Of a stretch of 64,000 bases of DNA, positions 17,178 to 59,399 are shown one piece after another (positions within the stretch are counted from its first letter, which is position 1; each line of letters starts with the position of its first letter). The position numbers and the translations under genes are program-made. Under the pieces are notes generated by a model. That model saw only the letters and a list, made by a program, of their open reading frames with translations, did no database searches and was not told where the DNA came from. This DNA is from Tubulanus polymorphus. Taxonomy: Eukaryota; Animalia; Nemertea. The stretch covers positions 1-64,000 of the forward strand of contig NW_027437474.1 in assembly GCF_964204645.1 (NCBI RefSeq), read 5' to 3'.

Positions 17178-17310
17178 AGCTACCCACCTACCAACCTCCC
17201 TACCTGTACACCTACATACCTGCCTGCCTGCCTGCCTTCCTGTCTGCCTGCCTGCCTGCCTGCCTACCTACCTACCTACCTACCTACCTACCTACCCACC
17301 TACATACCTC
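17178..17310 (+). repeat. Compound (CCTA)n/(CCTG)n microsatellite
   Basis: Directly visible tetranucleotide runs. Confidence 0.95.
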
Positions 17311-17359
17311 CGTATCGATAAGTTATAAGAATCTGATTGAAATACTTTCCTTTTTACAG

Positions 17360-18326
17360 ACGATCACAAATAAAAACGTGTTTATGGCTACACAAAGTCC
17401 ATTGGCAGATACAATTACTGATTTCTGGCAAATGATCTTTGACTTTAACTGTGAACTTATTGTAATGATGCATCAAGAATATCCACAAGATCCGGTAAGG
17501 TGTATTCCTAGTCTAGCACTGCCTTGTGTTGGTCTGCTTAATAGGTATCTTTTTCCAGAATACATCTTCTGATTTCAGACATATGCAAACTATTGTCCTG
17601 CAGCTGGAAGCATCAAATTCGGTCCTTTTACGATCACTGTGGATGAGGTTTCATTGCCCTGTAAGACCATTGTTCGCCGGGATTTGATCCTCCAAAAACG
17701 GAATGTACGTTGAGTTTATTCGGTATCATCCATTCAAAGATAGGTGGCTGTTTTTTTTCGGAATTTCCTTCGACATTGCTATTTACTATGACCTGATCAG
17801 ATCAATTGTATTTCTTTGATGTCGCAGGAATCGCGTCAGATTCGTCAGATCCAGTTTTTAGGATGGCCTGAGGATGCGTCAGTTCCTGACGTACAATATC
17901 TATTCGAGTTTGTGAAGTTAGTTACAAGAGAACACGTCACCAGTCCTATTGTTGTACATTGCATGTTCGTATCTTAGTAACATCAGTCAATTATTCAAAA
18001 CAACATCACATATTCTAAAGATTATGCAAATTTTACAGGGACAGCGCAACTAGAACTGGACTATTTTGTGCGGCATTTGAACTGATCACCGAGACGCCAT
18101 CTAACGAACAAATCGATATTTATCACTGTATACAAAAACTACGAATGACTCGACCTCAATTCATTCCAAATTTGGTAAGAAATTAATCGATTTTCTTTGT
18201 ATTTTCACGAGTAATGTTATTGATGTATTTTTCTTGTTTTCGTGTTTATAGGAACAATACAAGTTTCTGCATGATCTGATGATATTCTATTTACAAGGAT
18301 TCGACACTTATGCGAACCTTAGTTAG
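17360..18326 (+). pseudogene. Last five exons of a receptor protein-tyrosine phosphatase (D2 domain); orphan 3' copy
   Basis: GT-AG exons ~17360-17494 (FMATQSPLADTITDFWQMI), ~17579-17704, ~17828-17964 (QFLGWPE..PIVVHCM), ~18039-18174 (DSATRTGLFC..RPQFIPNL) and ~18252-18326 (EQYKFL..DTYANLS*). Frames are intact, but no upstream exons were found before 17360. Confidence 0.75.
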
Positions 18327-21039
18327 AATTATGACTGGAAATGCTGAAGAAAAGCAAACAATCAAAAAAGGGAATCTGAGAAACGGCACCTGAACTGCTA
18401 CTTTACCCATGGCATTAACCGAGTAATGGCGCCACTAGCTGGAACATGAAGTAACGATTAACTTACTTAATCATATAATCATATACTTAATCTTTTCAGA
18501 TTGTTTTATTCAAAATATTGCTTGAACTCTTGGACATAAAGATTAACGTAGCTTACGTATTTAGCAACGTTAGGTCTACTCCAGAAACTGTCCGGTTTTA
18601 TTGTGTTTATGTTTGCGATTACTTTTTTGTTCATGAATATATATTCAGATATAATTTATATATCTATTTGATTATGTATCTATAAAACTGAGTGTTATAA
18701 TATGTTATAATTTCAAGGTAAATAAAGATTATTATATTAGATAATTATCATTAGAAATAGATTATAAAGATGATTTATGTATATATCACTGTAAATTAGA
18801 TATTCTTAATTAATCTAAACACTCATGATTTATTTGTAATCACCCCGTTCACGTCGTGTATTATCCACTTCCTTCCCTCACTGTTATCCACCTATCCACC
18901 TACTATATATATACACTAATAAAAGTGAAAGCTCGTAATTTCTAGTATAAAATCAAGATAACTACTGACAGCAAGTTACCGTAGAATAATTCATAATGAC
19001 AATGTAATTGTAGCGTGATTATCAATTCAGTCACTCTTAATTAATAATCTTTAATTAATCTAATTACACATAATTTACATCCGGTAAAGTTCCTAACTAT
19101 ACATATATTACACTAGTAGCTAAAACACGTAATTTCTAGTATAAAATCAGGTTAACTACTGACAGTAAGTTGTTACCCGTCGTCACGTTTATTGATTATA
19201 CTCACAGTCCATACATGAATATAACTGATTATTTTACATTCACGATGAACTCGAATATTGTACATAATCTAGATTAAAATATGTAGATTTTTACAGATTT
19301 GCATTTGATGTTTATTTTTGCACTTAATGTTTTTATTTTGTCTTGTTTTAGAAAAGAAGATTCATTTCCGGAAATACATTCGGTGCTTTCTGTTTTGTTG
19401 TTTTGTTTGTTTTGTTCTTGATTTGTTTTACAAAAGGAAAGTCTTTCATGAACTCATAGATATACTTTAGAAATAGTTAACCAAAAAGTCTTCTTTTTCT
19501 GAAGTTGAACAAAAGACACGATTAGGCATTTTTTAATATTCAACAATATGATTCATGTGATAAACATTGTTAACAATGAATTTAGTTTATTAGGAATGGA
19601 GTCTTCTTTTGTGGTTGCATCAACAAAAAATAATCACGGCGATTATAAAGCATGTAATGACCTACAATTCTTGGGGTCAGTTGGTTGGAGTTAATCAGTG
19701 GATAGTTAACATATCTTTTACCAACTTTTGAGCATTTGTGGCTCATTACATGCTTTAGAGTATTGTGGTGTTTTTTGTTGATTATTTATTGTCTGAATAT
19801 CCAACAGGTCGAGTTATGACTATATTCTTATATCGTACTACGTGTATTTACAAAGATTTACAGCGCGTTTTACAAAATAAAATATCACGAATCAAAAACT
19901 TGCGAATGTAAATAATTTCTAAACGACATAAAAATCATTCAAATGGGTGTCTGTACTTGATAATGCAAGGTTTCTCATCTTGTTGACTGTAATAAGAGTA
20001 ACGAACCGCACACTTTTAACGCGTCCAATGTTCATTTTCCCATTTTAATTTTTTCCAAAATTTTCTTCGTAATACAACATATCTATCAATTTGAAAAGTG
20101 GAAATTGTCGCAGAGTTTTTCAATGACACGTCTTCCTTTGAACGACGAAGTTTTGTTTTCTGTTTCAAACATATAATACGTAAATCGCAATTTACTTCCT
20201 GGTAGACCGGTAGACGACGTTTTCGCGGATTTCACAGATGCGACACATATATTCATTTAACACCGTGCACCTTTTATATTGTCAGTTATATAATACACTT
20301 CTGAATAGAAAGACGTTTTTTTTTAAAACTCATGTGACAGAACGTTCAAGTATTATACACAAGAAAGCAGTTTGCTTGTACACTGTAACATCGTTTTGCG
20401 GCGTTAAAATCTACTTTCTTAAGGTTTATTTTCGCTCTGCTATTGTTTTTATTTGCGTAACGAAGGTCACGAATCTCCATCGCTAAAGGTAAGAAAAACA
20501 AATTCTATTTTTTCTTTTCGTTTTTTATTATTTTTATACAATTCACTATAGTTAGTCTAATATAGAATATTTATACTTTGTTTCTCCTAATCGGCTGAGG
20601 GTCACTTTCGTAAAATATGATAAGATTTTTAATCAGTTCATTTCTATAACTGTCGGTTCTGTTATTGTTAGATCGATCATGATTTAAAAAAAACAAACAG
20701 TCATGTACAGGGTAGATAGATGGTCAACTTTTAAGCTCAGCAGAAATGAGAGAAACAAGGTATCAATTTTTGTAGCCTAAATGCGAACCTTTATGGATAG
20801 ATCTTTATTGAAAGGAGGGGTATAGACCTCAGACTCTAGTAAATTAACTATTGGGTTACGCTCAGCAGAAATGAGAAACAAGGTATGAATTTTTTTAGCC
20901 TAGTTAGGCTAATATAGAATATTTATACTTTCTTTCTTCTAATCGGCTGTGGGTCACTTTCGTAAAATATGATAAAATTTGTAATCAGTTCATTTCTATA
21001 ACTGTCGGGTCTGTTATTGTTAGATTGATCGTGATTCCG

Positions 21040-22520
21040 TTTGGAAATTCAGTCAGTACAATGAATTCGGGTGCAAATGAAAATAGATATCACTACTGAC
21101 ATAGATTTGCTTTCTAAGAAATGTTTGCTGTTTCCTTAATTTGAATAGACACTACAGACACGTGTTTATGGAAACAAATGCAAAGTTTTTAATGTGAATT
21201 AAAGTGAAAAATCACTTGTTACTTACACAGAACATTAATGGTAATACTCCCGGTAACCGTTCCTGCAGTATTCGATACTATACATGTATAAAAACCTGAA
21301 TCGGTTCTACTGATTCCTGTAAATCTGGGTCTATTATGAGACTGTCCTGATAGATTGACACCAGTCCATTTATACGTCAGTCCTGTAGGTCAAGACGGTG
21401 AACCGTCACATGTAATTGTTAACGGTAAATTCTCCTGTACTGTGACGATGTTGTCGATGGAGGTGATTGGTTGAGATGTTAGAACCGGTCCACTAGGGGG
21501 CGCTGCAAACATACAGAAAAAAGAGAGAAGGGATGGTACGTTTTCTAATACGCTTAAATACTAGATTCGTTTATTGATTTTTGATTTTTAATCAACCATT
21601 TACTTGAAAACGAATCATTCTGATACAATGGATGGATGTACTGTGAGGAGTGGCACGTTTCACCATCTTGATAGATAACACTTCAAAGCATACAAGATTG
21701 ATTCGTGAAATCTTCGAACTCACGTTGATTGAAAAGTAGCTCAGATGAGGGGGTGAATACAATCTTACAAGCTTTTTTTCTTAATCAGTGATTACGATAA
21801 GAGAAATGGAATACAGTCAACCCCCGATATACTGCGCTCACATCGGTGCTGAACGATTTTGGCGGTATAGAGAGTACGGCGGTATATCGGGGGTGTTTTG
21901 CTATGTTTTTGTTTAGAGATGTACAAAACTGGCGGTAGGCGGGGTGGGCTGTATATGGGAGGGCGGTATATCGGGGGTTGACTGTAGTTCATTCATCTAT
22001 TTGTACGTCATTCTCACCTAATACAGTTATAACTGTTCCACTATGTCGGAAAGAGTTCATGTAGTTAACATGAATATCTTACAGAATCAGTCATCTGAAC
22101 ATTGGTGATACGTATACCATAACGTCCAGCTGTGACGTCACATTGTCCGGATCAATATTCCACGGGGACAGTTCATCTTATCAAACGCAAACTGTTGCGA
22201 AGGCGTACTCATTGTTATTCTGAAACCGCAGAAATGTGTCCTGGGTGGCGAAACGTGACATTTTACGACAGTGGTTCCAACTAGTTTTACAACTGTTCGT
22301 GTTCCGACTGTTGTAATTAACGTATCTGCTGCGTCTATACAGTGCTGCTGCTGTCCTAGAAAAAATTAACAAAATTACCAATTTACAAGTGGAAATTCGA
22401 AGATAGCCGTTTCCCATTTCCCAAACGATATTACGAAAAACTGTAGACAATTTCGTTTACCGTTTATTCCTGTGCACTGCGTCATTAGGACCAACACCAA
22501 CATCATTGGCAAACACTTCT
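21040..22520 (-). pseudogene. 5' part of an Ig-superfamily cell-surface protein gene (signal peptide + Ig exons), disabled
   Basis: Signal exon ..MMLVLVLMTQCTGIN|GT (~22461); V-type exon ~22018-22356 (frameshifted, YGIRITNVQMTDSVRYSC); C2-type exon 21227-21502 (LTITCDGSPS*PTGLTYKW..DSGFYTCIVSNTAG) with an in-frame stop; phase-1 introns. Confidence 0.7.
21814..21984. mobile_element. Tc1/mariner (pogo/Tigger-like) MITE in an intron
   Basis: TIR CAGTCAACCCCCGATATAC / GTATATCGGGGGTTGACTG with TA on both sides. Confidence 0.9.
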
Positions 22521-24749
22521 GTAATGAAGATAAACACTGATTTAGAATATATCGCATGTACCGCTGTGAGTGGGCAAGACGTTTGATATTCTAGTCCGTT
22601 TTGTAAACGGTTAAACTGCGATCGAGATTTCGAGATTATGAGCATACAGAATTAAATCTGTAGCACGACCCGGCTTCGAGATTATATTAACTAAACGCAC
22701 GTATCAGTATAGTGGTCTGCCACAGTCACTTAAACCAATGAAAACTGAATTCAGAGTCTGAATCGACCCACAAAATGTAGGTGCTAATCCTTACCTTCCT
22801 ATACATATTGTATACGATTGCTTCTCATAGAACCTCACAAAGCTTTAATAGAAATAGTATACATACAAATATCATGGATGATAACAAAGTGATATCCAGG
22901 GGCTAATAGTGGTCAGTTAAGGATCGTTAACGGGGGAAAACGAACCCATTGGTCATATGTATTCATTATGATGAAATACTGTACCTTCGATTCTATGATA
23001 GCCTACCAGACAAGCTTTTCAGTAACTTCAACAATTGAAAAAATCACGGTTCAACCGAATAAACCTTAATTTACACTGGCTAAAAATTCATACCTTGTTT
23101 CTCATTTCTGCTGAGCTTAACCCAATAGTTAATTTACTAGAGTCTGAGGTCTATACCCCTCCTTTCAATAAAGATTTATCCATAAGGCTAAACAAAAATG
23201 ATACCTTGTTTCTTCGCAGCGGCCGGGTCATTTTTGTAAAATATGATAAAATTTATAAACAGTTCATTTCTATAGCGGCCGGGTCTGTTATGGTTAAATT
23301 GATCAAGATTTAAAAAAAAAGTAATGTATAGGGTAGATAGGCAGCAGAGCGGAGAAACAAGGTATCAATTTTTTTAGCCTAAAGGTTCGCATATAGGCTA
23401 CAAAAATTGATACATTGTTTCTTTCATTTTTGCTGAGCTTAAAAGTTGACCGTCTATCTACCCTGTACATGATTGTTTTTTTTTTATCTTTAAATCACGA
23501 TCAATCTAACAATAACAGACCCGTCAGTTATAGAAATGAACTGATTACAAATGTTATCAAATTTTACGTAAGTGACCCTCAGCCGATTAGGAGAAACAAA
23601 GTAAAATATTCTATATTACCCTAACTATAGTGAATTGTATAAACATAAAAAAAAAATGAAAACAAAAGAATAGAATGTGTTTTTCTTACCTTTAGCGATG
23701 GAGATACGCGACCTTCGTTACGCAGATAAAAACAATTGCAGAGCGAAAATAAACCTTAAGAAAGTAGATTTTAACGCCGCAAAACGATGTTACAATGTAC
23801 AAGCAAACTGCTTTCATATGTATAATACTTGAATGTTCTGTCACATGAGTTTTAAAAAAACCTCTTTTTATTCAGGAGTGTATTATATAACTGACAATAT
23901 AAATGGTGCACGGTGTTAAATTAATATATGTGTCGCATCTGTGAAATCTGCGAAAACGTCGTCTACCGGTCTACCAGGAAGTAATTTGCGATTTACGTAT
24001 TATATGTTTGAAAAAAAATTAAAACTTCGCCGTTCAAAGGAATACGTGTCTGAACGGCGATCAGTGAAAAACTCTGCGACAACTTCCACTTCCACAAAAT
24101 GATAGGTATGTTTTATTACGAAGAAAATTTTGGAAAAAAATTAGAATGGGAAAATCAACATTGGAGGCGTCGAACGTGTGCGGTTCGTTACTCTTATTAC
24201 AGTCAACAAGATGAGAAACCTACAGACACCCATTTGAAATGATGAATGTCTGAATGATTTTTATATCGTTTAGAAATTATTTTCATTCGGAAGTTTTTGA
24301 TCCGTGGTGCTTTATTTTGTAAAACGCGCTCTTAATATTTTTAAATACATGTAGTACGATAAAGGAATAGAATGTCTTAACTTGACAACAAAAAATCACC
24401 ACAATATTCTAAAGCATGTAATCAGCCACAAATGCTCAAAAGTTGGTCAAAGATATGTTAACTATCCACTGAATTACTCCAACCAAGTGACCCCCGGAAT
24501 CGTATGTCATTACATGTTTCATAATCGCCGTGATTTTTTATTGATCCAACCACAAAAGAAGACTCCATTCCTAATAAACCAAAATCATTGTTAACAAGGT
24601 TTATCATATGACTCATATTGTTGAAAATTCAAAAATCGCTAAACGTGTCTTTTGTTCAACATCAGAAAAAGAAGACTTTTTGGTAAACTATTTCTAAAGT
24701 AAATCTATGAGTTCATGAAAGACTTTCCTTTTGTAAAACAAATCAAGAA

Positions 24750-24781
<32 letters not shown>

Positions 24782-25015
24782 GAAAGCACCGGATGTATTT
24801 CCGGAAATGAATCTTCTTTTGTAAAACAAGACAAAAATAAAAACATTAAGTGCAAAAATAAACATCAAATGCAAATCTGTAAAAATCTACATATTTTATT
24901 CTAGATTATGTACAATATTCGAGTTCATTATGAAAGTAAAATAATCATTTATATTCATGTAAACGAGTCCGACGCGATTCCTGTGAAATATAACATATAC
25001 TGTTTACAGTAACAA

Positions 25016-36605: not shown

Positions 36606-37661
36606 ATTTTTTTGGATTAATGGGAACCCAGAATTGAATGTTCCATCATCTGTTGATAAATCATAAACATAGTCAGTTGGCTTATATATTTCAAATAAAT
36701 CTTTAACTTCTTCTGTTAATTCTTTTTCTACATGCCTTAAATTAAAACAATTTGGTTTAGATTTAATTAATTCTAGATTCATATTAAATCCTAATGAACT
36801 GCATAATATATTCAATTCTGATATAGCAACTTTTCCTTTTTGAGCTAAAGATATTGTTTTGAAACTTTTTGAACCATCTGCTGCATAGAATCCAATGAAG
36901 AACCATTTTCTTAAATTATTTTTTGCATTTAATACATAATCTGGAACTATCTTTTCTTTAGTTGAAGTATTACTTTTCACTATTGTATGAATATAGAATT
37001 CATCATTATATTTTGTAGCAAAATCTTTAGGATTATTTACAAATATTCTATAAACCGCGGATGATTTCATATGATCCATGATTCTAAATGTTTTATGTGA
37101 ATAAACTTCTTCGCAGAATTTCTTTATTCTTTCTAATAATTTCAGATCTTGATTGCATAAATACCAACGATATTGAGTGCGATTAACATATTTATACACA
37201 CCTGCTGAACCATCTCCCATGAAAAATCCTTTGATAAAATATTCTTTTTCTTCTAATGTTTCGGGTTCTATATTATAAATATTATCAATAATTTCATCAA
37301 ATGACATATGATTCATTCTTTGGAAAAATCTTTTATGTAATAATTCATCTCCAATTTTTATATCAGTTCGTTTTATTTCATCACCATTTCGTTTTATTAA
37401 ACTATGATCTGCTGTAACATCTACAAATCCTAATTTAGTTCTAACTCTATAGATTTTCTTATTTGTTTTATGTCTAATAATATTCTTTAATTTTTTCCAT
37501 CCATTTCTTGTCCAAACATCCATTAATCCATTTATTTGTATTAATTCTTTTTCACCATATGAAATATAACATTCATTTTGTTTTGGAATTATTTCTGAAA
37601 TTCTTCTTACCAATATTTTATTATTACATTTTAATAATATTGGGGTGTCAGCTGTTACAGA
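36606..37661 (-). mobile_element. Intein (352 aa) with LAGLIDADG homing endonuclease in PolB motif C
   Basis: Block A SVTADTPILL; block B VDVTADHSL; two dodecapeptides YFIKGFFMGDGS and WFFIGFYAADGS; block F YVYDLST; terminal ..LIQKN followed by +1 Thr. Removal restores ILYFD-T(N/D)S-YIL. Confidence 0.93.
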
Positions 37662-40600
37662 ATCAAAATATAATATTTCAATATGCTTTTCCCCAAAAAG
37701 TGGTTGTAAAACATTATAATAAAAATCATACATTAATAATTTTGATACTTCTAAAACAGTCAGACCAATAAATATAGGTTTATTAAATTTCATTGATGTT
37801 CTTTTTAATTTAACTGCTGTTAAATAATCTTCAAATCTTTTATTTCCTAAATGTCTAGGGCTTGATTGTAAATGTCTTAATCTCTCAAAATTATTTACTA
37901 ATTCAATATCATTTCTATTTCTAATATTTTCACATGTTTTACCATAAAAACTATTATTCATCAATTTGAAGAAATCTTTTTCAAAATCTGTTTTTGATAT
38001 GGTTCTCTGTTGAGTATTGAAATCTATATATTTTTCTAACCACTTCGATTGATTAAATTCAATATATCTATGTACTTTCTTTAATTTCATTCCTTGTTTT
38101 AGATAAAATTTTAACATTCTATAATGAACAATATAATTGTATTTATTATTTTGAGTAAGTATTAATTTTTCTGTAAAAACATGATCTTTCGGTTTTATTT
38201 TCTTCTGGTATTCACTTAAATAACTATCATCTACAGTTAAATGTTCTGGGCAATAAGGTAAGTTTCTTGTTTTAAACTTTATATTTTCAGGATATTCTAA
38301 ATCAACTACAAAGAAATAACCAATTGGTGCTTCATCTTTTAAACTCGCAATTGCGCTTTCCCAATCAGTTTTATCACCATTTTCAACTTCTGTTAATATA
38401 AAATTTTTATATGGTTGAGGTTGCATCATTGCCCAACCATATAAATTATTGGCGTCAATATATAATAATTTATATTCATCATTTCCTTTAAAATATCTAT
38501 CTCCCATAACACCACTAATTCCACGTCTAATTGATTTTTCAAATGATAAAACCATATCTGGTTCTTTTAATAAATCTAATTCTACATTTGGATATTTTAA
38601 ACCACATTGCCAGGTTAAACCAGGACTAGAGTAGCAATAACAAGGATCAACATTAAAATGATTAAAATTAACTTCTCTAAATTTTTCAAATATCATAACA
38701 TCTGATTTTAAATATAAATCAACTAATTCACCATGATTTTTCATCTTAAAATGGTTCCAAATATTTAATGTTCTATTAAACACTTCGTCTTTCACATACT
38801 CCTCTTTTAATTGATCATAAAATTGATCTTTTAATAATTCTGTTACATTAAAATCATTGTGTGTTTTATAAAATGAATAAGGAATTGCGCCTTTATATCT
38901 CAATAATTTAAAATCTTGTTCATTTGGATAATAATATCGAGTTATAACAAAATCATTATCAACTAAACTTTTTGATAAATTATCTAATGAACTTGCTAGA
39001 AATCTATAAGAATCTAAAAATCTAATGCAACCAAATTGAAATGAAATATAATTTTCAGATGTTTTAGCTAATAGTTTAAAATCATATTTTCTTACATTTG
39101 CTTCATTCATAGCATTATATTCTTCTATTTCTTGATTAATTGCGCCCAATTTTCCCGATAATTGTTTTATAAATAGATGGGTATCATATCCTGATAAATT
39201 ATGAAATAATATTGGTACGAAATTTACTTTTTTAGCTTGTAAATTGCAATCTTCATGAGCAGCTCCACGATATTTTGAATTCAAATGATCATGATCTCTA
39301 ACTCTTTTATCAAATGAATAAAAACGTTTTTCACAATAACAACAATGAGTTGCATAATTAAAATCAATTTCATCTTCTTTTGTCATAACTATTCTTTTAT
39401 TTTTGTTTAATAATTTTGCAAAATCACTTTCTAATTCAATCATTTTATCACAAAAATCATTAACTACATTTTCACCTCTAAAAGAAATATATTGACTTTC
39501 ATATAATTCAGGATAATTTGATTTTATATAAATTCCATAAGCAGCAGCTCTTTGATGAACTTTTTTAATTGTATTTATAATTGGCGGGTCTTGTATTATG
39601 TCTTCATTTAATTCATTTCCTTTATCCATTGATTTTAATAATTGCTTTTTGTTATATATTTCTTTTCTATCTTGATCAGTTAATTCTTTATTCAACGATT
39701 CAAAATCCCCATAAATTACAAATGGAACAATATTCTTAAATTTATGATTAGTAAATTTTAATTCATAATCTTTTTCTGTTGGCATTATTAATTTACAAAA
39801 ATCTTTATTATCACATAATTCTTTATGTTTTAGTAACGCATTCTCAGTCATAAATTTAGATAAACATTTTCTACATAGATAAATTTTATTATGATGATCA
39901 CTTTCTGTTCTAAAGAATAAATCAATTTGTTTTAACCACATATAATGTTCATTTTCATCTTTTTTGTAATATAACAATCTATAGCATTTTCATCATCATA
40001 ATATTCTGTTAAATATAAAGCTTCCAATGTATAATCTTTAATATTTTCACCTTTTGTCTTTGGTAATTGCATTAATTCGAATACATTTATTTTTAAATTA
40101 TTAACTTTTTCTATTTTAGGAATCATTTTTATAGTTACTGGATATTGATCAATTTTATATAATGTTTCATATTTCCGATAATCTGTTATTCTACAAACAT
40201 TTTCCTGTGATGGATGTAAGCAACTAATAATTGACCATAGAAAACATTTATTATCTTCATTTTGAATATTTATTACTGCTTTTGTTATAAATGGTAATTT
40301 AATATAAGATGATGCTTTAATATCCTTTTCTGTTGTAAAGTTTGAATCATTTTTAAACATTTTATTGCTTTTTGATGTTTTATTTCTTTTTGTATTATAA
40401 ACATTTAAATCTAAATATATTATTTCATTCAATGTTAAGCCAGAACCCTCAAAATATCTTTCTTCAATATGACGTTTAAATTCATTTAATATTTTTTCTA
40501 ACTTCTCTTTTATTTGTGTTTTTGAAATTATTTCTTCAGAGAGTGTTTGAATATTATAATTCATCTTTTCTTCTGACTTTATAAAACTTACTTTCCCAGA

Positions 40601-41603
40601 GATACTAATTTTTGGATATTCAACATCTGTTATCAAATCTAGTATTTTTTCTATTATTTCATCAAATTTACTATAATTAGGGTTTTCTGTTATTTCACAG
40701 AAAACCGTATTGATATCCGCGTGATTATTATTATTATTATTTTCTTCCACACTATTTTTACCAAAAGAACATAGGCTTTGTTACCTTACCGCTGTTTCAT
40801 ATACAATCCATATAATATCGTTCAGCTCACTGAGATCTACAAATAGCCCGCGTGTTTTTTCACGAATCATCGTTACAAAAGCGCTGTCGGGCCGTAAACA
40901 TCGAAAATTTAGCCCCATTCAATGGGGCGACATGTTTTTCGAGTCATCCCGAAATCAACCCGCAGGCCGACTGTCACTTCGATTATCAATTCAAGTATAA
41001 ATGAACTAATTTATTGCCGCAGACTTCACATTCAGTCGCGGTCTTCAAACAGTGATTTTAACAATAGCCCATTTTCCTCATCAGATCATATTACCGATAC
41101 ACTGGAAATTTACTACTTTAGATGTTAAAAGCACTGTCGAGCCGTAAACATCGACGAATCGACGTGTGTTACTACATCGTCGTTCCGGGGATCAGCTGCG
41201 AGTTTCTCCTCATCATGAGAATCAAATCGAGTACAAATTAATTTATTACTACCAGTGATTTGGCTGCGGGTTTCAAGGAGTTAGTTTAACAATATCTATT
41301 TTTCTTTACCGAATTAACCGTGTATTTACTAAGATAAATCTTTAGTGTACCGGGGAATCGTAGGCCTAAACTAAACACGCCGAAGAGATATAGCGGAGAA
41401 AAGCTGTTATGTCGACGAGGTATCAAAATAGAAGAATATATTACTTTATTCGGCCGCGGGCTTCAACCTCTATATCAATACCATCAATACTCTATATTTC
41501 CTACAGTACATACCGATCATTGTCAAATGCACAATGTATTTACTAAATACAATTATATAACACAATCCTGTCCGTATGCTGGACTCACACTTGACATTCG
41601 GAG

Positions 41604-41925
41604 TAAGCGTTCGCTGTGGGGGAAAGGGATCGTTCGCTGTGTCGCTTGAAGTGTTTATCGAGTTTGACGTGGCTTTAGGCCTACCGGTACTGAGCTTTAC
41701 TGTCTCAAACAAACACAGTATAATTGTTGCGTTTATTAACTTACTCATTGGATTGAACTTTAAACAAAATTTACGATATTTAGGTGGGTTGTTATTCAAT
41801 AGGCCTACGACCAATCTGTCCGGATGTTAGGCCTACATAGGCTAGTAGCCTCTACTAGGTTAAGCGTTCGCTGTGGGGGAAAGGAGATCGTTCGCTGTGT
41901 CGCTTGAAGTGTTTATCGAGTTTTA
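41604..41925 (+). repeat. ~62-bp direct repeat pair (~41604 and ~41862)
   Basis: AAGCGTTCGCTGTGGGGGAAAGG(A)GATCGTTCGCTGTGTCGCTTGAAGTGTTTATCGAGTTT occurs twice. Confidence 0.85.
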
Positions 41926-42044
41926 CGCGACCTTAAGGCTTTAGTATGGTGGCTGATAAGGGCCATGCGTTAAAAAAAACACGTATATGCAAATGAGGGC
42001 GACATTATGACAAAACGACAAAACTAAAATAACGCGACAAAACA

Positions 42045-44175
42045 ATAATTTTGGTTTTGTCGCCCGGGACAATTCATTATTTTGGTTTTATCGCCCGCGA
42101 CAATTCATTATTTTGGTTTTATCGCCCGCGACAGTTCATTATTTTGGTTTTGTCGCACGCGACAATTCATTATTTTGGTTTTATCGCCTGCGACAATTTT
42201 TTTTTGTCGCGGTTTTATCGCCTGCGACATTCAATATTTTGGTTTTATCACAAGCGACAATTCATTATTTTGGTTTTATCGCCTGCGACAATTCATTATT
42301 TTGGTTTTATCGCCTGCGACAATTCAATATTTTGGTTTTATCACCAGCGACAATTCATTATTTTGGTTTTATCGCCCGCGACAATTCATTATTTTGGTTT
42401 TATCTCCCGCGACAATTTTTTTTTGTTGCGGTTTTATCGCCTGCGACAATTCAATATTTTGGTTTTGTCGCCCGCGACAATTCAGTATTTTGGTTTTATC
42501 GCCCGCGACAATTCATTATTTTGGTTTTATCGCCCGCGACAATTTTTTTTTTGTCGCCGTTTTATCGCCTGCGACACTTTAATATTTCGGTTTTATCGCC
42601 TGCGACACTTCAATATTTTGGTTTTATCGCCTGCGACAATTCAATATTTTGGTTTTATCACCAGCGACAATTCATTATTTTGGTTTTATCGCCCGCAACA
42701 ATTCATTATTTTTGTTTTATCGCCGGCGACAATTCATTATTTTGGTTTTATCGCCCGCGACAATTTTTTTTTTGTCGCGGTTTTATCGCCTACGACAATT
42801 CAATATTTTGGTTTTATCACCAGCGACAATTCATTATTTTGGTTCTATCGCCCGCGAAAATTCATTATTTTGGTTTTATCGCCCGCGACAATTCATTATT
42901 TTGGTTTTATCTCCCGCGACAATTTTTTGTTGTTGCGGTTTTATCGCCTGCGACAATTCAATATTTTGGTTTTGTCGCCCGCGACAATTCAGTATTTTGG
43001 TTTTATCGCCCGCGACAATTCATTATTTTGGTTTTATCGCCCGCGACAATTTTTTTTTTGTCGCCGTTTTATCGCCTGCGACACTTTAATATTTCGGTTT
43101 TATCGCCCGCGACACTTCGATATTTTGGTTTTATCGCCTGCGACAATTCAATATTTTGGTTTTATCACCAGCGACAATTCATTATTTTGGTTTTATCGCC
43201 CGCGACAATTCATTATTTTTGTTTTATCGCCGGCGACAATTCATTATTTTGGTTTTATCGCCCGCGACAATTTTTTTTTTGTCGCGGTTTTATCGCCTAC
43301 GACAATTCAATATTTTGGTTTTATCGCCCGCGACAATTCATTATTTTTGTTTTGTCGCACGTGACAATTCATTATTTTGGTTTTATCGCCCGCGACAATT
43401 TTTTTTTTGTCGCGGTTTTATCGCCTGCGACATTTCAATATTTTGGTTTAATCGCCTGCGACAATTCAATATTTTGGTTTTATCACCAGCGACAATTCAA
43501 TATTTTGGTTTTATCGCCCGCGACAATTCATTATTTTGGTTTTATCGCCCGCGACAATTCATTATTTTTTTTTTGTCGCACGTGACAATTCATTATTTTG
43601 GTTTAATCGCCCGCGACAATTTTTTTTTTGTCGCGGTTTTATCGCCTGCGACACTTCAATATTTTGGTTTAATCGCCTGCGACAATTCAATATTTTGGTT
43701 TTATCACCAGCGACAATTCATTATTTTGGTTTTATCGCCCGCGACAATTCATTATTTTGGTTTTATCGCCCGCGACAATTCATTATTTTGGTTTTATCGC
43801 CCGCGACAATTCATTAGTTTCGTTTTGTCGCCCGCGACAATTCAATTTTTTGGTTTTGTCCCACGCGACAATTCAATATTTTGGCTTTATCGCCTGCGAC
43901 AATTCAATATTTTTGTTTTATCGCCAGTGACAATTCATTATTTTGGTTTTATCGCCCACGACAATTCATTAGTTTGGTTTTGTCGCCCGCGACAATTCAA
44001 GATTTTGGTTTTGTCGCCGGCGACAATTCAAGATTTTAGTTTTATCGCCCGCGACAATTCATTTTTTGGTTTTGTCGCCCGTGACAATTCAATATTTTGG
44101 TTTTATCGCCAGCGACAAATGATTATTTTGGTTTTATCGCCCGCGACAATTAATTTTTTTGGTTTTGTCGCCCAC
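42045..44175 (+). repeat. 31-bp satellite/minisatellite array with 507-bp higher-order repeat
   Basis: Unit TTTTGGTTTTATCGCCCGCGACAATTCATTA. Diagnostic variants recur 507 bp apart (42401/42908, 42481/42988, 42649/43156). Confidence 0.95.
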
Positions 44176-44265
44176 TTTATTAGCTTTTGAATAATTAGGC
44201 CAATTAATAACGTAATAAAGACTTATTCTTTCGCCTATTTTGAAGTCGAATAATCTGATATAGTA

Positions 44266-44677
44266 CGGAAGCGATAAAGGGCCTCGAGTTGTCGCGTTCA
44301 AACTCGACAAGTCGCCATATTTATGTCGATATATCGCGATATATCGCGTCAAGTCCACATGAATATGTCTACATATCGTGACGTTTTCACAACAAATTTC
44401 GCTTTTTGGCTCATTTTCCACGGGACAAGCCGTCATTTGAAGACATGTCTAAATGTAAGATGAGGACGCTAGTAATATGACGACTGAGTTTCAAGTCGTC
44501 ATGATTATGTCGACTTGTCGCGAGGAAAATGGTCGAGAAAACGAAATATGTCGTCAAAACGTCACGATATATCGACATATTCATGTCGACTTGACGCGAT
44601 ATATCGCGGTATGTTGACATAAATATGGCGACTTGTCGAGTTGGAACGCGACATCTCGAGGCCCCTTATCGCTTCTG
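44266..44677. mobile_element. Tc1/mariner-type MITE with long TIRs (second partial copy ~44779-44905)
   Basis: ~120-bp inverted arms starting CGGAAGCGATAAAGGGCCTCGAG / CTCGAGGCCCCTTATCGCTTCTG, with TA on both sides. Confidence 0.85.
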
Positions 44678-45164
44678 TACATATAGTGTCGAATATTAAG
44701 GTCATTTTGGCAGATTCTTTTTTTTTTAAAGTGATATTAAAGCGATCATTCAAGTGATCCTACTTAATGAAAGATCTACGGAAGCGATAAAGGGCCTCGA
44801 GTTGTCGCGTTCCAACTCGACAAGTCGCCATATTTATGTCGATATATCGCGATATATCGCATCAAGTCAACATAAATATGTTGACACATCGTGACGTTTT
44901 GACGAATTTAAACTCAGTCGTCATATCACTGGCGTCCTCATCTTTCAGCAACGCCAGTCACATGGAGTCGTACGTGTTCTACTTTCTGCGACGCGACACG
45001 ACTGTCACAACCAACCAACGCGCTCTTGCGACTGGCAGAAACTAGTCGCACACAATCGTATTGCAACCGACTTGCACTGAAACTTGCGATGCAACGCGAG
45101 GATCGCATCGTGTCACAAGACCAACCTACATCCGGCTTTAAGTTACTTCGGAGCACCAGAAATA

Positions 45165-45665
45165 TCTTTTTTTTCGTTCAAAAGACCTTTCGCTTGAAAA
45201 TTCTTTCGTCGGAACAAAATTTATTTCGTTCGAACCAATAATATTCTATACGATTGAACCAATTTGAGAAAATCGTAAGAACAAAGTTGAAAAAACTTTT
45301 TTTTGTCCAAACGAAAGGTTTTTCGTTCGAACTATCGTTCAATTGAACAGAATCTTTTTTAATTTGAACAGAATTTTCTTGTCAGAACATTAAGTTTTTC
45401 GTTCGAACAAGTATATTGAAAAAAGTTCAATCGAACAGAATTGTTTTCATTCAAACATTCGTTCGAAAAAATTGTTTTCGCTCGACCAAATTTTTTTGCC
45501 GGGAAAATTTCATTTCAACAATAACAGCTTTTTATTCGAACACATTTTTTGTCAGAATGAAGAAAATTTTTGGTTCAAGCAAAAAGCGTATTGTTCGATC
45601 AAACAGAATTATTTTCATTCGAACAAGATTTTCTTGTTGGAACATTAAGTTTTTTGGTCGAACAG
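45165..45665. repeat. Degenerate tandem repeat rich in TTCGTTCGAAC
   Basis: Recurrent TTTTTCGTTCGAAC / GAACAGAATT units. Confidence 0.6.
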
Positions 45666-46735
45666 CGTGTTAAGGTCGATTTGGAAATTTACTCGGTCTG
45701 GTATATGTTGGATTACTGTGTATGTCATTTGTCAGGACATTAAACAGAAGACAACTTAGGATACTACCTTGCGTGACTCCACTAGTTTGACCGACTTATT
45801 CCAAGATGAAGCGTTCCGTTGATTTCGGCTACAAGTTTTCGTTCAGAGATAACTGCTGAGCCATTTGGGCGACCTATAATTGATACTGTTTCCTAATAGC
45901 CTGTTTAGTAATGGCTGATGTTGTGCCTTATCAAATGCTTCGTCGAAATCCACCGTTGAACAGGATTCTAAGACTGTGCAGAAAACCCGTTATCGCTGCT
46001 TTGCAGCTATATTCTTCTATTGTTGTACCTTTAAAAAATCTAAATATAATAGCTGCAGGACCAATTTTACTATGTAATGTTTCTAAAATTTCAATTGTAT
46101 CTTTTATTTCTAGTGAATCAATATAATTTCTAACATTTTCCATGTAAGGTTCATTTGAAATGGATTTAGTTTTTGAAGTTGATTTTTTTACTTGTTGAGG
46201 TTTATTATCAAAATATTCTGATCCTAAAACATTTTTATTTAAATTTTTATAATGTTTTTGTGATTCGAGATGTCTATTATAATTCCTTTTTACTATAAAT
46301 TCATTACAAACTTCACATTTTATTTCATCCACATTCATATTTTCTAATCGTTCTTTTCTTTCATTAGAATTTTCTGGAGTTTCAAAATCTATTACATTTT
46401 TTATATGATTTGCAGATTTTTCATGTCGTGATTTTTTGGATTTATCGATGTATTTTTTACAATATTGACAATAATATTGATTTTTATTAACATTATTATT
46501 TTCTGGTTGGTGTTCATTCTCTCCCATTTATAAGGAAAAAAAATTACTTGTGGTGATGAGTGTTCGACCTTCGACCTCTGATCTGAAACTCTACTTTCCC
46601 AATTACTGAGATGTTGAAGAAGGCGTAAATGACAGAACTTATTTCAACATAATTAATTATACTATGTATCACTAATTTCAAGGCGACTCCTGTTAATGTG
46701 TAAAAACTTGTGTCACAATGACTGTTGGTACCTAC

Positions 46736-52169: not shown

Positions 52170-52817
52170 TTCAGGGTCAATTGAAAATCTAACTGATTCC
52201 GAAACTCGGAGTGTAATAGTGGACGAGGCTGGTACTGCAAGTGGAAAATGGACCAAACAGTCAACCCTCAAGTTGATCGATTTGTATCGCAAAAATATTG
52301 ATAAAGTAAATGAAGGGAAGATGCGTAAGTCCATGTTGTGGATGAAGAAATTCAGAATGATTATTTTGATTTTAGTGCTGAGCAAATAAGGGGTAGATGG
52401 AGAACTATAAATACAGGGTATAAAAATGTAAAAGATGCAAAAAATAAATCGGGTTCAGGCTATGTCAAAGATTATGTGTATGAAAATGAGCTGGATGACG
52501 CTCTTGGTGTAAAATCGGCAAATATAAATCCAGTTACTTTCAGTAGTAGAGATAGTAATCCTCTTCATGATTCATCTACTGATGATGATAGTGAATTATC
52601 ACCTATTGTTAAAAAACGAAAGCTTGATGAAATTTCTCCATCGGATAAATGTAGAACGTCAAAAAAATCAGCAGCTTCAACGGTAATTGAATATTTGGGG
52701 GCCATGGAAGAAAGAGCTAAGGAACGACGTAAAATAGACAAGGACATGGCCATGCAAATGCATAATGAAAAAATGTCTTTGTTCAAAGATTTTGTAAGTG
52801 CTATTTCAGAAAAGTAA
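52170..52817 (+). pseudogene. Myb/SANT-like (trihelix) DNA-binding protein of a PIF/Harbinger transposon, frameshifted at ~52340
   Basis: KWTKQSTLKLIDLY..KSMLW plus FSAEQIRGRWRTINTGYKNVKD; small upstream exons are likely; convergent with the transposase. Confidence 0.75.
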
Positions 52818-53883
52818 AGATCCAGCTTGTTCAATACAGTATTTTAAATGCTGTTTTATGGTAAAAGGTACGCATAAGTCTGACTACCTCAAGTTTTTTT
52901 TTAGTTGTACATTACAGTTTTCACTGAATTGATTGAAAATATTTGTAAATGACTTATGGTACGGTATATCTCGTACTATATCATTTCACAATCCTATTAC
53001 ATACTGCTTGAATTTGCGGAAAGGGGAGCGGTTCTAAAAATGAGGGAAATTTTGGTTACGTGATAAAATGGGGAAATTATATTATCATTTATATTTTTAT
53101 AATTTTATGATGGAGGATTTCCATAATAAAAATTTTATTTTACGTTTATAATAACATTTTGTTCCTTTGCTGTAATACCTTTCATGGCATTCTCTTTAAT
53201 ATTGTGGGCGGCATGGAACAGATAAACAGTTTCCAATCAGCAGGGTTCCTACGGATCAGTCATTCCAGAATTCAAGGACTTTTCGAGGAGTGTATACATC
53301 ACTTTCTTATCACAATTTATGTCTCCTAAATCAGTACTGTTTATCCAGGTAAACCATTGAATTCAGTAGAATCTGTGTGTATAACAACTAGGCCTTAAAC
53401 TTATACATTTTCAAAATCCAAGGACCTTGAAAAACATTTTTGGTTTAGAAGGAGTTAGGGGCCCTGGTCAGCATCCAGTGTAAGGGGGTTAACCGAGAAG
53501 TTTGAATGATAAACTTTTGGCAGAAATTTTAATAGCCACAAAAATCCAACGCATAGTATACTTTGCACATGAAGCCAGGCATGCACCGTTATGATAAATT
53601 CGAAATTGATTGCTTTAAACTCCTCGTATATTATAATGAAAACAATTGTTGTTATTGTGGCTATTAAGGCAGTCTAAAATTGGCGAAATTCTAATGGGGC
53701 AGGGAGTCGAGGCCGCATTTTGATAAAAGTTGATACATCAAACATCCTCAGTCTCTAAACCAAACTTCTGTGTCACCTGTGTGCAAATAATTGAATTGGA
53801 CAAAAAGAAATGACTTGAATACTAATTTAATGACTTAAGTGTTACAAATGCATTAAAACTTTGTATGCAAGGTAGAAGATATA

Positions 53884-55284
53884 CTACTCTCCAACCAATT
53901 GCAATCTTAAATCGTTTCTATACTGTTCTCCTTCATGATCAGCACCTATGATCTCGGCACCATTATTTGCCTCCAGGCCATCGTCAACAACGTCATGTAA
54001 ATCTTCAAGATCATCTTCATCTGACATTGAACAGATATTATGCAAGACAAATGCAGAGGTGATGATCATAATAATTCTTTTAATGGAATGGACAGTGACA
54101 TAATGGAGACGCCTAAATCGACCTTTAACTCTACCAAACGCTCTTTCTATGACTGCTCTATTACTGGACAACAAGTAATTAAATCGTCTACGAGCTCGAG
54201 TCATATTGCCATCGTTACGATATGGCGTCACTAACCATCTGCGACAGGGATAACCTCCATCGCCCAGAATATGTTTGTCACCAAATAAACCGAAATTATT
54301 CCACAAGTCACTGTTTTTTAATATTCTCGAATCATTCACGCTTCCCGGCCAGCCGACATAAATATGGGTGAAGCGCATGTCGTCTTTACACACTGCCTGA
54401 ACATTCATGGAATGATATGATTTCCGGTTCACAAACACTTGTTTATCTGGCCTGCGAGGAGCTTTAATTTCAACGTGTGTGCAATCAATTGCCCCAATAA
54501 TTCCAGGAAAACCATTACGTTGGTAAAATCTATCAGAAATCTCTTCCTGCTCTTCACCTGATGGCCATTTAATTATCTTTTTTGTAAGTCCATTAGTTAT
54601 AGCAGATAATACCGTTGTAATACACTTTAGAACACACGATTCAGTAACATCGAACCTGTCTGAGATTTGTCTAATTGTGTCCAATATACCTAGATAGCAC
54701 AAAGTGGCAAGGATCTTTTTTTCTGCCTGTCGACCTCTGTTTATTACTGCAGTTTGCATCTCTGGTAATGGTTCGAGTAGATTACTCAGAGTTGCATATG
54801 TGCCTCGAGATAATCTGAATAAACGCTTGAAATCTTCGTCCAAGTATTCACTTGCTATATATTCTGTGTACATGTTTATTTTTATCCTGTCTGACCGCAG
54901 CCTGAAAAATAAAAAATGATAGAACTTTTCACGTAAGTTGTAGATGTTGAACACCAGATAAGACTGACATTAACTTTTAGTGGCTTTTAACATATTTATG
55001 CCCCCTAGCTCCTATCATGCAGGTGGTCGTATGCAACTTAATTATTAACAAAATTAAGTCTAAGACAAACGAAATAAAATCATTTTAATTGAATTGAAAA
55101 GAAAGTAAACCTCATGGCTTGTGCGTGTTTAAGATACTTACAGAGTCGAGCATAGTACAACTTGATATTTAAGTTTCTCTTCTTCGACGTTGTTATAGTG
55201 ATAGGACTCTAGATCGTCGTTATCAAATAACTCTGATAAGAGTGGCAAAGCCAGCGTTAAACTGTCACCCGCCGTCGCCATCAT
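53884..55284 (-). CDS. PIF/Harbinger DDE transposase (HARBI1-like); exons 55284-55142 and 54901-53884
   Basis: FKRLFRLSR, FPGIIGAIDCTH, GWPGSVNDSRI, ILGDGGYP, VIERAFGRVKGRFRRL, LHNIC. A GT-AG intron joins the exons in frame. Confidence 0.88.
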
Positions 55285-55684: not shown

Positions 55685-56370
55685 ACATTCTAGCTTGTAT
55701 AGGTTTCATATTTATAGAACTATGTTTAGAATTATTATAACCTTTCACTAAATCATCTTACACATCTATATATTTATATGTTTCATTAGCAGTGAAATAT
55801 TTCCACATTCTAGTTTTCAATGTTGTATTAAATCTTTCTATGATAGATGCTTTTGTATCTGAGTGTGTTGAAAAATAATCTACATCGTTTTCAGATGATA
55901 GTTTTATAAATCTTTATTATAAAATTCATTACCTTCATCAAATTGTATCTTACCTGGGATAGCTTCATTAAATATTGATTTAAAAGCATTTGTTACTTCT
56001 ATACCAGTTTTACTTTTGATTGGTATACTCTATGCGTATCTACTGAATATATCTATAACATTCAGTATCCAGAAATATCCTTTGTTATATTCTTCTAAGT
56101 TCTTCATGTCAATTGAATCTGCTTTTGCCATTGTTGATCAATGTATGAAACCATAACCTTTCTTGTTAATGAACTTTTATCCATTTTCTTATGGATTTGG
56201 TACGTTGGTTGATTTTGTAACCATAATCTCAGTTCACTATATTTTATATTTTCATTATCAGATTTGATTTTATCCCATAATTCTGTAATGCTAGAATATG
56301 ATACTTCACTCTCTGGGTTATAATATAAATCTCTTAAATGTTGTTCTTTTTTAATCTTCTTTTAATCCAT
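55685..56370 (-). pseudogene. rve integrase remnant
   Basis: LYYNPES, QPTYQIHK, IDIFSRYA*, IQFDEGNEFYN, IERFNTTLKTRMWKYF, NNSKHSSINMKP; several lesions. Confidence 0.85.
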
Positions 56371-56469
56371 TAATAATAATATTGATTTAGTTTCAATGGT
56401 TTTATCATTGGACTTATTTTCTGGTATAATAGGTTTATTATTATCATCATCATCTTTATCATCAGATTT

Positions 56470-56730
56470 TTACTTATATTTATATATAACACCGGAGAAT
56501 ATAATAACTGTTACCAATCCAATTGTAATATATAATTTATTATTACTTCTAGCATTAGAAGAATAAGATGGATTATTATTTGAATCAATATCAGATAAAG
56601 TCTGTGACTCATTTATATCAGTTAATTTCTTTTTCTTAACTTTTTTAAATTCTGAAGATCTTTTTCCCAACTCCCTAGCCCATTTAATTTGTTTTTCGGA
56701 TCTAGGTTTCTTCTTAATATCATCACTCAT
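56470..56730 (-). CDS. Homolog of the 27711-28094 small TM protein
   Basis: KKPRSEKQIKWARELGKRS plus a TM segment. Confidence 0.7.
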   Translation of the reverse strand: MSDDIKKKPRSEKQIKWARELGKRSSEFKKVKKKKLTDINESQTLSDIDSNNNPSYSSNARSNNKLYITIGLVTVIIFSGVIYKYK

Positions 56731-57294
56731 TTATTTTAGTTAATTTTTGTTCTGATTCAATATCTTCTGATTTACTTTTACCTTTACATACTATAGGTTT
56801 AATGTTAGAAAATGTTATAACTCCAGTAGAAATCAATGTTATTATTCCTCCTAATTGGAATGAAGCGTATCCAACCCATTTCTGTATTTCTGTCATAACT
56901 AAATAATCGTTTTTTAAATCACTATATAATTTATTTTGATCATCAATTGGTATTATCCGGTTACATAATTTAGAATAACATTTTATAATACCATCACTTA
57001 TAGAGTCGTTTATTCTAGCTAATCTTGACTCTTCATATATTTTGAAATATTTTATTACTTTATCTGGTTTAATATTATCTAATTCTTGAAAAGTTAAAAT
57101 TTTACCAATAAACTCATTACATTTACCGCTAGCAATTAATAGTTCAAGATGGTGCTTACACATCAAATAGTATTCATAATCAATATTATCATTTTGAATA
57201 CAATTAGAAACAACTGTATCATATTGCCAGTAATACCTAAATCCTCAATTGTCTTTTCAACATCAATATTATTCTTATTAGATTTCTTTGACAT
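56723..57294 (-). pseudogene. Homolog of the 28027-28632 protein (frameshift near the 5' end)
   Basis: CKHHLELLIASGKC..LYSDLKNDYLVMTEIQKWVGY..FQLGG. Confidence 0.75.
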
Positions 57295-57777
57295 TTATAT
57301 TAGTGAAAAAAGCGAAAAAAATATGATAAAATGATCCTAAAATAATACTTTGTGTGATACTAGTGTTTGATAAGTAATACTAGCTATTTGAAGTTATTGT
57401 TTTTTTATTTGAATCTATTCAAAATCTATTCAATCTAGTGTTTACTAGAATTGTAAAAGAATATATTAAAAATATAATAGAATTCACTATCTATTTGAAG
57501 ATATGTAATTTTTACTTTAATCTTTTCAAAATCTATTCAATCTAGTGTCAATTAGAATTGCCAAAAGAAAATATTAAAAATATAATAGAATTCACTGGCT
57601 AGTTAAAGTTATTGTTTTTTAAATACTTAGGATTTAGATTATCTCACTACTATTGCTATCTATTAGGAGCAATCAAATTGTCCAGATAAGTCATTTCGGA
57701 TCCTCGATAAAAAATCCTCAACTGAAAATCAATTCAACGAAAACACCGGGTGGAAATACTATTTCATAAACACATAT

Positions 57778-59385: not shown

Positions 59386-59399
59386 TTATAATATATATT

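Follow-up and report, generated by a model that had tools for sequence, protein, structure and literature searches.

A pol-c intein with a LAGLIDADG endonuclease in the protein-primed polymerase of a Maverick element on an animal contig

Introduction

According to surveys (PMC5784728, PMC7765530, PMC10710043), eukaryotic inteins occur in fungi, algae, protists, and large DNA viruses; animals are credited only with the Hint domains of Hedgehog proteins. We analysed a stretch of 64,000 nucleotides (the window) from a contig assigned to Tubulanus polymorphus, which is a palaeonemertean (Nemertea). This locus raises the question of whether a polymerase gene in an animal genome carries a true intein and, if so, where the intein came from and how it persists. 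A first-pass annotation, made from the letters of the sequence, had proposed a full intein with a homing endonuclease in the polymerase of an integrated Maverick.

The insert in motif C

The minus-strand open reading frame at 36150-39977 encodes 1275 amino acids, of which 773-1124 are an in-frame insert of 352 residues (window positions 36606-37661). The insert divides motif C of the Maverick PolB, as YFD / SVTAD...QKN / TNS, at a point between the two catalytic aspartates. The first-pass annotation had described an insert of this size with an initial serine, a block B, a terminal asparagine, a threonine at +1, and both endonuclease aspartates; its coordinates and length proved to be exact. 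The boundaries hold up as well: the closest polymerases read YFD-TDS across the site, and 75 whole-genome reads lack exactly 1056 nt.

By the class 1 definitions (PMC4031507), the splicing residues are Ser1, Thr83 and His86 in block B, Asp334 in block F, Asn352, and Thr at +1. Both catalytic aspartates of the LAGLIDADG domain are kept (Asp150 and Asp262), and in an alignment of 45 sequences the column of Lys237 is at least 90% invariant. The Hint and LAGLIDADG_3 domains that had been expected were recovered by profile searches: TIGR01445 (intein_Nterm) matched at 30.6 bits (cut-off 24.5) and Pfam LAGLIDADG_3 at 28.4 bits (cut-off 22.5), with Pfam Intein_splicing (E = 1.3e-7, 32 bits) falling under its own cut-off of 35.8. 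The best sequence match in the PDB is PI-PkoII (E = 1.9e-6). An AlphaFold2 model of the intein, with 45 sequences as input, has a pLDDT of 92.3 and a pTM of 0.92. The top Foldseek matches of this model are inteins with an endonuclease (TliVMA, PI-PkoII, PhoVMA, PI-PfuI, and PI-SceI; E = 1.4e-16 to 2.5e-10); mini-inteins and I-DmoI rank below them, and I-DmoI has a TM score of about 0.7, normalised on the target. Residues, profiles, and model together confirm that the insert is a full intein with Hint and LAGLIDADG domains, which is predicted to splice and to cut.

The Hedgehog Hint domain of animals has the same fold as the Hint part of the window intein. Hedgehog proteins do not ligate exteins and have no endonuclease. 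A Hedgehog-type domain was ruled out as the identity of the insert because the neighbours of the insert, by sequence as well as by fold (Foldseek), are true inteins.

The C-terminus of the intein is odd: the penultimate residue is lysine instead of histidine, and block F has no histidine either. These histidines are not obligatory in every intein (PMC4031507). In 248 related intein segments, which came from 431 proteins, the penultimate residue is most often histidine (163), followed by lysine (65) and serine (11), and 41 of the 242 relatives that were scored combine a penultimate lysine with the lack of a block F histidine, as the window intein does. Since 65 of 248 related inteins have this lysine, we ruled it out as a sign of decay; judging by these relatives, the odd C-terminus is a trait of the family.

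Copies with and without the intein in one species

Four sequencing runs from one study (X1-X4) contain at least half of the sequence words of window positions 35000-41000. For a closer view we used run X6, which is raw whole-genome sequence with the same species label from a different study, and of which about 12% was sampled. Reads from X6 that were mapped on 36380-37880 have a mean depth of 600 in the flanks and 216 in the intein. The ratio of intein to flank depth is 0.36 at 80% likeness and 0.56 at 85%, which suggests that the intein is present in about a third to a half of the copies of this family. The 75 reads with a net skip of exactly the intein's length (7 + 30 + 38, in three joint rows) are from X6, and one contig from X1 has the same net skip. 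Thus, the proposal that sister copies would include empty targets was borne out. Just 125 of the 3831 mapped X6 reads are at least 99% alike to the window copy, so the Maverick family is diverse. Also, because empty alleles with unchanged flanks persist in the window's species, homing there must be incomplete.

The Maverick and the state of this copy

The intein lies within about 20 kb of DNA that is enclosed by a 43-nt inverted repeat with a 95% match (26494-26536 versus 46520-46562; Table 1). The end of the right repeat has an AG/AGT-type motif, by comparison with the Maverick end motifs in PMC8097293. The left end, where the 6-bp target duplication of a Maverick would be read, is cut in this copy, and 1101 X6 reads have loose ends before 26493, at the left repeat.

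Table 1. Features of the intein, the surrounding Maverick, and the host contig (window positions)
Feature	Coordinates	Strand	Evidence
Left terminal inverted repeat, which lacks its outer part here	26494..26536		Repeat match
A32-type packaging ATPase	28919..29527	-	Pfam Pox_A32, E = 3.3e-13
Retroviral-type integrase with chromodomain, broken into two frames	29528..30597	-	Weak Pfam matches; match to L039
Candidate major capsid gene, in two frames	30627..31860	-	Sequence motifs
C-extein of protein-primed PolB, with +1 Thr and second catalytic Asp lost	36150..36605	-	83% to intein-free P0273
Full intein, 352 aa, in motif C (pol-c site)	36606..37661	-	Residues, profiles, model, exact empty alleles
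C-terminal Hint half: block F Asp334, penultimate Lys, terminal Asn352	36606..36719	-	Residues and model
Two-motif LAGLIDADG endonuclease domain, about residues 121-310 (Asp150, Lys237, Asp262)	36732..37301	-	LAGLIDADG_3; fold match to I-DmoI; boundaries approximate
N-terminal Hint half, about residues 1-110, with Ser1 and block B Thr83/His86	37332..37661	-	TIGR01445 over residues 2-88; all-beta model; boundary approximate
N-extein, ending at the first Asp of motif C; includes the exonuclease and motifs A and B	37662..39977	-	79% to P0273
Upstream polB piece in another frame, frameshift near 39975	39959..40678	-	Mapping of P0273
Inserted host repeats that split polB, about 5.3 kb, including a 31-bp tandem array at about 42020-44170	40680..46008		Mapping of P0273; depth
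5' end of polB, zinc-finger N-terminus	46009..46527	-	58% to P0273 residues 5-167; zf-U1 match
Right terminal inverted repeat, likely terminus of AG/AGT type	46520..46595		43 nt at 95%; end motif
Host rhodopsin-type GPCR gene	62143..63090	-	Tubulanus polymorphus homologues; animal Atlas clusters

The integrase ORFs match Pfam rve (E = 7e-4) and Chromo (E = 9e-5), both under the cut-off, and resemble the two halves of a gene adjacent to polB in locus L039 (48% and 33%). The next gene is a candidate for the major capsid gene, on the basis of sequence motifs. This candidate had no match in our searches of Pfam, PHROGs, and IMG/VR, and a single-sequence model of it (pLDDT 33) was unusable. No protease gene was identified among the ORFs of the element. 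Two further ORFs, at 33154-34542 (462 aa) and 32235-33137 (300 aa), are intact; neither has a usable match in Pfam, PHROGs, or NCBIfam, and the 462-aa ORF has none in the Atlas.

The intein-free polymerase P0273 maps onto the window in four pieces: 46503-46009 (residues 5-167 of P0273), 40678-39959 (residues 166-415), 39977-37620, and 36608-36156. Within the insertion that separates the first two pieces, X6 depth at 40868-41900 is 3300-4300, versus 170-900 over the element genes, so the inserted DNA is a high-copy host repeat. Homologues of the window's polymerase carry PF03175, and the window protein itself does not match this family. The protein-primed PolB, the integrase, the A32 ATPase, and the terminal inverted repeat support the original assignment of the element to the Mavericks.

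This copy is damaged in ways that most of its relatives are not. The change of TDS to TNS, at the +2 extein position, had been taken as decay of the host polymerase. The second catalytic aspartate is indeed lost, but the loss is private to the window copy, from which 148 of 149 X6 reads differ at that base. At the frameshift in polB, 184 of 241 X6 reads differ from the window copy. A more general contrast, between an intact intein and a decayed polymerase, had also been drawn. The polymerase is decayed, but the contrast carries no weight because the intein of this copy has near-private damage of its own. (The open frame at 36150-39977 also spans 923 polymerase codons.) Among the differences listed, the intein of the window differs from the reads at 26 sites, and at 13 of these the difference is carried by at least 84% of reads. 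Nine of these 13 near-private differences are at codon position 1 or 2, and one affects residue 98, in a column that is at least 90% invariant. Third codon positions account for 4 of the 13 near-private differences listed and for 8 of the 13 polymorphic ones, a split that is suggestive of purifying selection among subfamilies, although the sites are too few and too selected for it to count as evidence. Given the 5.3-kb insertion, the frameshift, and the private changes that reach into the intein, we conclude from its sequence that the window copy is a dead relic of its family. An intact intein in a dead polymerase was thus ruled out as a sign of selection.

Two other observations concern the element as a whole. 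First, 70 X6 reads join 28654 to 31921 and skip 3266 nt, which contain the ATPase, the integrase, and the capsid candidate; these reads may come from an internally deleted subfamily. Second, a T-rich or A/T-rich tract followed by TAAATG, which overlaps the start codon, is found at eight likely gene starts of the element (28094, 28632, 30597, 31860, 33137, 34542, 34993, and 46527, all on the minus strand), and three likely gene starts of a second element in the window (56730, 57294, and 59385) have the same arrangement. The tract and TAAATG resemble the late promoter of poxviruses. They may point to a promoter that is shared or to a helper virus, with the reservation that TAAATG is frequent at non-starts in AT-rich DNA.

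Other carriers and empty relatives

A search of longer proteins with the intein gave 316 matches, and four of the top five are protein-primed polymerases, or fragments of them, with the insert at the same site. The window intein is 61% identical to that of P0002, 47% to the P0003 cluster, 44% to P0004, and 45% to P0005, all of which are Maverick carriers. There are also partial carriers (P0168, P0223, P0235, P0279, and, at 76%, P0295). Among the best 120 of the 316 matches, most of the others are RNA-primed PolB.

The closest exteins are empty, with YFD-TDS at the site: P0154 is 84% identical over the N-extein and P0155-P0157 are 72-73% identical. We scored 120 of 128 polymerases, with 112 empty and 8 filled; the other 8 were unscorable. 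On a 56-row tree of exteins, which was built from the N-extein only, the state of the intein changes 7 times, and 5 of the changes are forced by starred branches; presence of the intein is clustered no more strongly than in shuffles. P0005 contains PF03175, and its intein is in the Maverick clade even though the extein can hardly be aligned with the window's group (best E = 0.048). From a VSR-like motif, we take P0005 to represent a second group of Polinton polymerases. All of the full-length Maverick inteins that we saw keep both endonuclease aspartates, over paths of about 1.5 changes per site, and no mini-intein was found among those examined.

In IMG/VR, the intein query identified 37 loci, which are named as giant-virus MAGs or other viral contigs, and no intein-bearing Maverick. 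(The host gene was checked directly for L001 and by similarity for L002, L003, L005, and L009.) The N-extein query found 3 loci in IMG/VR, and queries with the capsid candidate, P0003, and P0005 found no loci there. In a scan of metagenomes, 12 loci match the C-extein only, and the intein has a match in 0 of 15 Maverick-like loci.

Related inteins also occur in other genes. P0100, which is a cellular DNA polymerase delta from a source named Chloropicon primus, has a related pol-c intein that is outside the Maverick clade. Topoisomerase II proteins have related inteins at other sites (P0006, P0092, P0108, P0113, P0114, and P0117); those included in the trees are one clade inside the pol-c radiation, which represents a further non-allelic jump.

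Origin of the intein

A quick tree of 67 inteins groups the 9 Maverick rows in a single clade (SH-aLRT 100). In a mixture-model tree of 39 rows, which was rooted on two pol-b inteins and omits partial rows, two long rows, 19 pol-c rows, and 4 topoisomerase rows, the 6 Maverick rows again form a clade (100/100). This clade sits inside a larger one (99/97) with 19 RNA-primed pol-c inteins. Grouping of the Maverick clade with the nearest viral group (9 rows) has a support of 94/87 and is unstarred. One of those 9 rows, P0013, is 99.8% identical to the PolB of the giant-virus MAG locus L002, and L001 encodes an RNA-primed PolB with an intein. The nearest non-Maverick relatives of the window intein are inteins in giant-virus-type PolB, at 38-41% identity. 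The expectation that the intein came from the pol-c inteins of large DNA viruses thus agrees with the nesting of the Maverick clade among giant-virus-type pol-c inteins, and a giant-virus donor is likely, on trees whose rows were picked by similarity to the query and left out archaeal inteins.

The transfer from a virus to a Maverick, which had been proposed for this locus, is supported by the trees, but it did not happen at this locus. For the polymerase group to which the window belongs, inteins and exteins give trees with the same branching and similar path lengths, and the base composition of the intein (25% GC) is close to that of the extein (24% GC). Matching trees and equal GC content imply that the acquisition is old, and by the same trees it is common to several Maverick lineages. 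The DNA flanking the site is identical to that of four viral loci at 8-11 of 15 nt on one side and 4-6 of 15 nt on the other, and with identity this low, simple allelic homing between the sampled sequences does not account for the first jump.

A likely homing footprint

Of the 136 members of the P0003 cluster, which are on contigs of up to 1.02 Mb, we read 40. Among 15 members listed, 7 are filled, 6 are empty, and 2 end before the site. All 7 filled members have full-length frames of 1537-1539 amino acids, in which the residues for splicing and for the endonuclease are present. Over the 20 residues around the site, the other six filled members do not differ from the filled P0129 at all, and the six empty members, which represent three haplotypes, differ from it at 8-9 of the 20 and at 4-11 of the next 40. 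Elsewhere, the empty members differ from P0129 at just 5-14 of about 1130 residues, with two members at 7 of 845 and 53 of 1061. The intein may have been carried in, along with short stretches of flank, from a different Maverick lineage, or else the only empty sites to survive are the divergent ones. Homing would give either pattern, so this site-centred divergence is likely a homing footprint. Ordinary recombination could also have produced it.

The empty site itself varies. Among 81 empty polymerases (P0169-P0271), the +1 residue is Thr in 43 and Cys in 38, and the +3 residue is Ser in 66, Ala in 10, and Gly in 5, which is unusual for a catalytic motif. This variability could reflect escape from the endonuclease, but it is only a lead, as there is no intein-free control lineage.

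How the intein persists

We favour, with fair confidence, the explanation that a giant-virus polymerase intein was acquired once by Mavericks, should splice out of the polymerase as predicted, and persists by homing into empty polB genes of sister copies. The move from an RNA-primed viral PolB into the protein-primed PolB of a Maverick, probably in a co-infected cell, is a step that we consider quite probable, and the coding motif DTDS, which both share, would have helped it. Splicing would very probably take the class 1 route, with an N-O shift at Ser1, attack by Thr+1, and cyclisation of the asparagine without a penultimate histidine; splicing of the precursor would restore motif C so that the polymerase works. 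It seems probable, too, that the endonuclease cuts empty polB alleles, that repair copies the intein together with short flanks, and that divergent empty alleles escape. The large pool of sister copies would supply targets and so keep the nuclease under selection, and homing could take place among chromosomal copies or among free replicating genomes. Counting against current homing, the matched trees and GC content fit long vertical descent, and few of the scored homologues are filled (8 of 120).

These last observations are the strength of the main alternative, that the intein still splices but no longer homes, and descends vertically in some subfamilies, with empty copies arising by recombination between subfamilies or by precise loss. 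Agreement of the intein and extein trees within the window's group, the ameliorated base composition, the unchanged empty sites alongside filled ones, and the 112 empty homologues out of 120 all fit this account. We nevertheless consider it unlikely. Both endonuclease aspartates are kept in every full-length Maverick intein seen, over about 1.5 changes per site and with no mini-intein among them; divergence in the P0003 cluster is concentrated at the site; and the jump to the second polymerase group (P0005) needs mobility.

Another alternative is that filled copies are non-autonomous, with an insert that remains unspliced in the animal and with a polymerase that empty copies supply for their replication. 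The empty copies, which are no rarer than the filled ones, could complement them in this way, and the window intein lacks both the block F and the penultimate histidine. We judge this very improbable because the required nucleophiles are all conserved in distant carriers, because the variant with lysine and without the block F histidine is found in 41 of 242 relatives, mostly in single-copy viral polymerases that should need splicing, because these histidines are dispensable in some inteins (PMC4031507), and because the 7 filled frames of the P0003 type are full-length.

Returning to homing as the favoured explanation, a stronger form of it is possible, and we hold it tentatively: a giant-virus intein that colonised Mavericks long ago may still be converting empty copies in the germ line, jumping between polymerase groups, and driving an arms race in which motif C diversifies (Thr or Cys at +1; Ser, Ala, or Gly at +3) to escape cutting. 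If this form is true, then animal chromosomes would have their first inherited family of true inteins and protein-primed polymerases their first intein family, and the family would also be a trace of Mavericks sharing cells with giant viruses.

The host contig

The GPCR gene (Table 1) has three homologues at E <= 1e-10 among 3517 candidates, and all three are from Tubulanus polymorphus (55%, 54%, and 42%). Its neighbours in the Atlas are animal GPCR clusters. Because the matches are nemertean only and the Atlas clusters are animal, the host of the contig is an animal, as first annotated, and likely a nemertean. The link between element and host is drawn from the assembly and the pattern of decay; among the reads and contigs listed, none bridges the element and unique host DNA. 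That the element is instead a free virus, or comes from a protist symbiont or prey, and was misassembled onto animal DNA would fit the lack of a bridging long read among those listed, and also the origin of close polymerase relatives from short contigs of mixed public sources (one of them labelled bacterial), but it is highly unlikely, given that 5.3 kb of high-copy repeats interrupt polB, which also has private breaks, as in an old chromosomal copy, that a second decayed Maverick, a Harbinger transposase, and the nemertean-like GPCR are on the same contig, and that X6, which has the same species label but comes from an independent study, contains the family at high depth and in diverse forms.

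Relation to known inteins

The pol-c inteins described in PMC549080 (from the PolB of Mimivirus and from position III in archaea) interrupt the polymerase at the same point, after the first Asp of motif C and before its Thr. That definition of the site, together with clustering among pol-c inteins, upholds the naming of this insertion as pol-c. The window intein also resembles them in its Ser1, its Asn end, its Thr+1, and its combination of Hint and LAGLIDADG domains. Unlike those inteins, whose hosts are RNA-primed PolB, the window intein is in the protein-primed PolB of an integrating Maverick, and the element has many copies in an animal genome, where filled and empty alleles occur together. 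The extein motif differs as well (YFD, YMD, or YLD in the Maverick carriers versus YGD in the RNA-primed hosts).

Three other comparisons are relevant. First, inteins in integrated viral polymerases on nuclear scaffolds were reported for Klebsormidium, Tetrabaena, and a labyrinthulomycete (PMC10710043). Those hosts are algae or protists, whereas here the host is an animal with an amplified Maverick family that has its own integrase; the words Polinton, Maverick, animal, and metazoa do not occur in the main text of that paper. Second, the pPolB2 proteins of animal Polintons have HNH or VSR nuclease domains inside the polymerase (PMC10748475). In contrast to these, the window insert has a Hint domain, splice junctions, a LAGLIDADG domain, a catalytic-site insertion, and exact empty alleles, and the terms intein, Hint, LAGLIDADG, and homing are absent from that paper. 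One sentence in PMC11161782 suggests that the nuclease domains of Polinton polymerases derive from "intein invasions", and the source that it cites is for HNH/VSR. The main texts of PMC8502044 and PMC8097293 do not use the word intein either. Third, inteins are known from Nucleocytoviricota, including the RNR of Chilo iridescent virus (PMC4031507) and 117 inteins in four families (PMC5784728), and some of these viruses have animal hosts. Those inteins are reported from viruses, not from inherited chromosomal copies or from protein-primed polymerases.

Our search of full-text literature, with supplements, RepBase, InBase, and subscription journals outside its scope, found no description of a Hint-bearing intein in a Maverick, a protein-primed polymerase, or an animal chromosome. 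What we report is a canonical pol-c intein in a class of host gene and a genomic setting for which we found no earlier description. It would be a full intein that reached an animal nuclear genome, in many copies, via an integrating virus. With filled and empty alleles in one genome, invasion, escape, and loss should be measurable from the sequence of one individual. The family could also help to trace contact in the past between animal Mavericks and giant viruses, two groups whose relation is still debated, and inteins with Ser1 and Thr+1 that lack both of the usual C-terminal histidines should be useful for studying the mechanism of splicing.

Other features of the window

A second and more decayed Maverick at 55690-59700 has 71-72% DNA identity to parts of the first. 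It includes a free-standing endonuclease VII/HNH-like ORF (58723-59385; PHROG 1035, E = 2.7e-15), which adjoins a remnant of the 5' end of polB. Between the two Mavericks, at 52338-54954, is a Harbinger/PIF-type transposon with a DDE_Tnp_4 transposase (E = 7e-41) and, on the opposite strand, a Myb/SANT ORF. A nested giant inverted repeat at 17300-25500, with arms of about 3.5 kb that are 85-95% complementary, is possibly a foldback element. Finally, an intronless gene at 12583-14274 (51% GC) encodes a DXD glycosyltransferase of 563 amino acids (Gly_transf_sug, E = 1.9e-19), and a fragmentary paralogue of it is found near 8464-8628.
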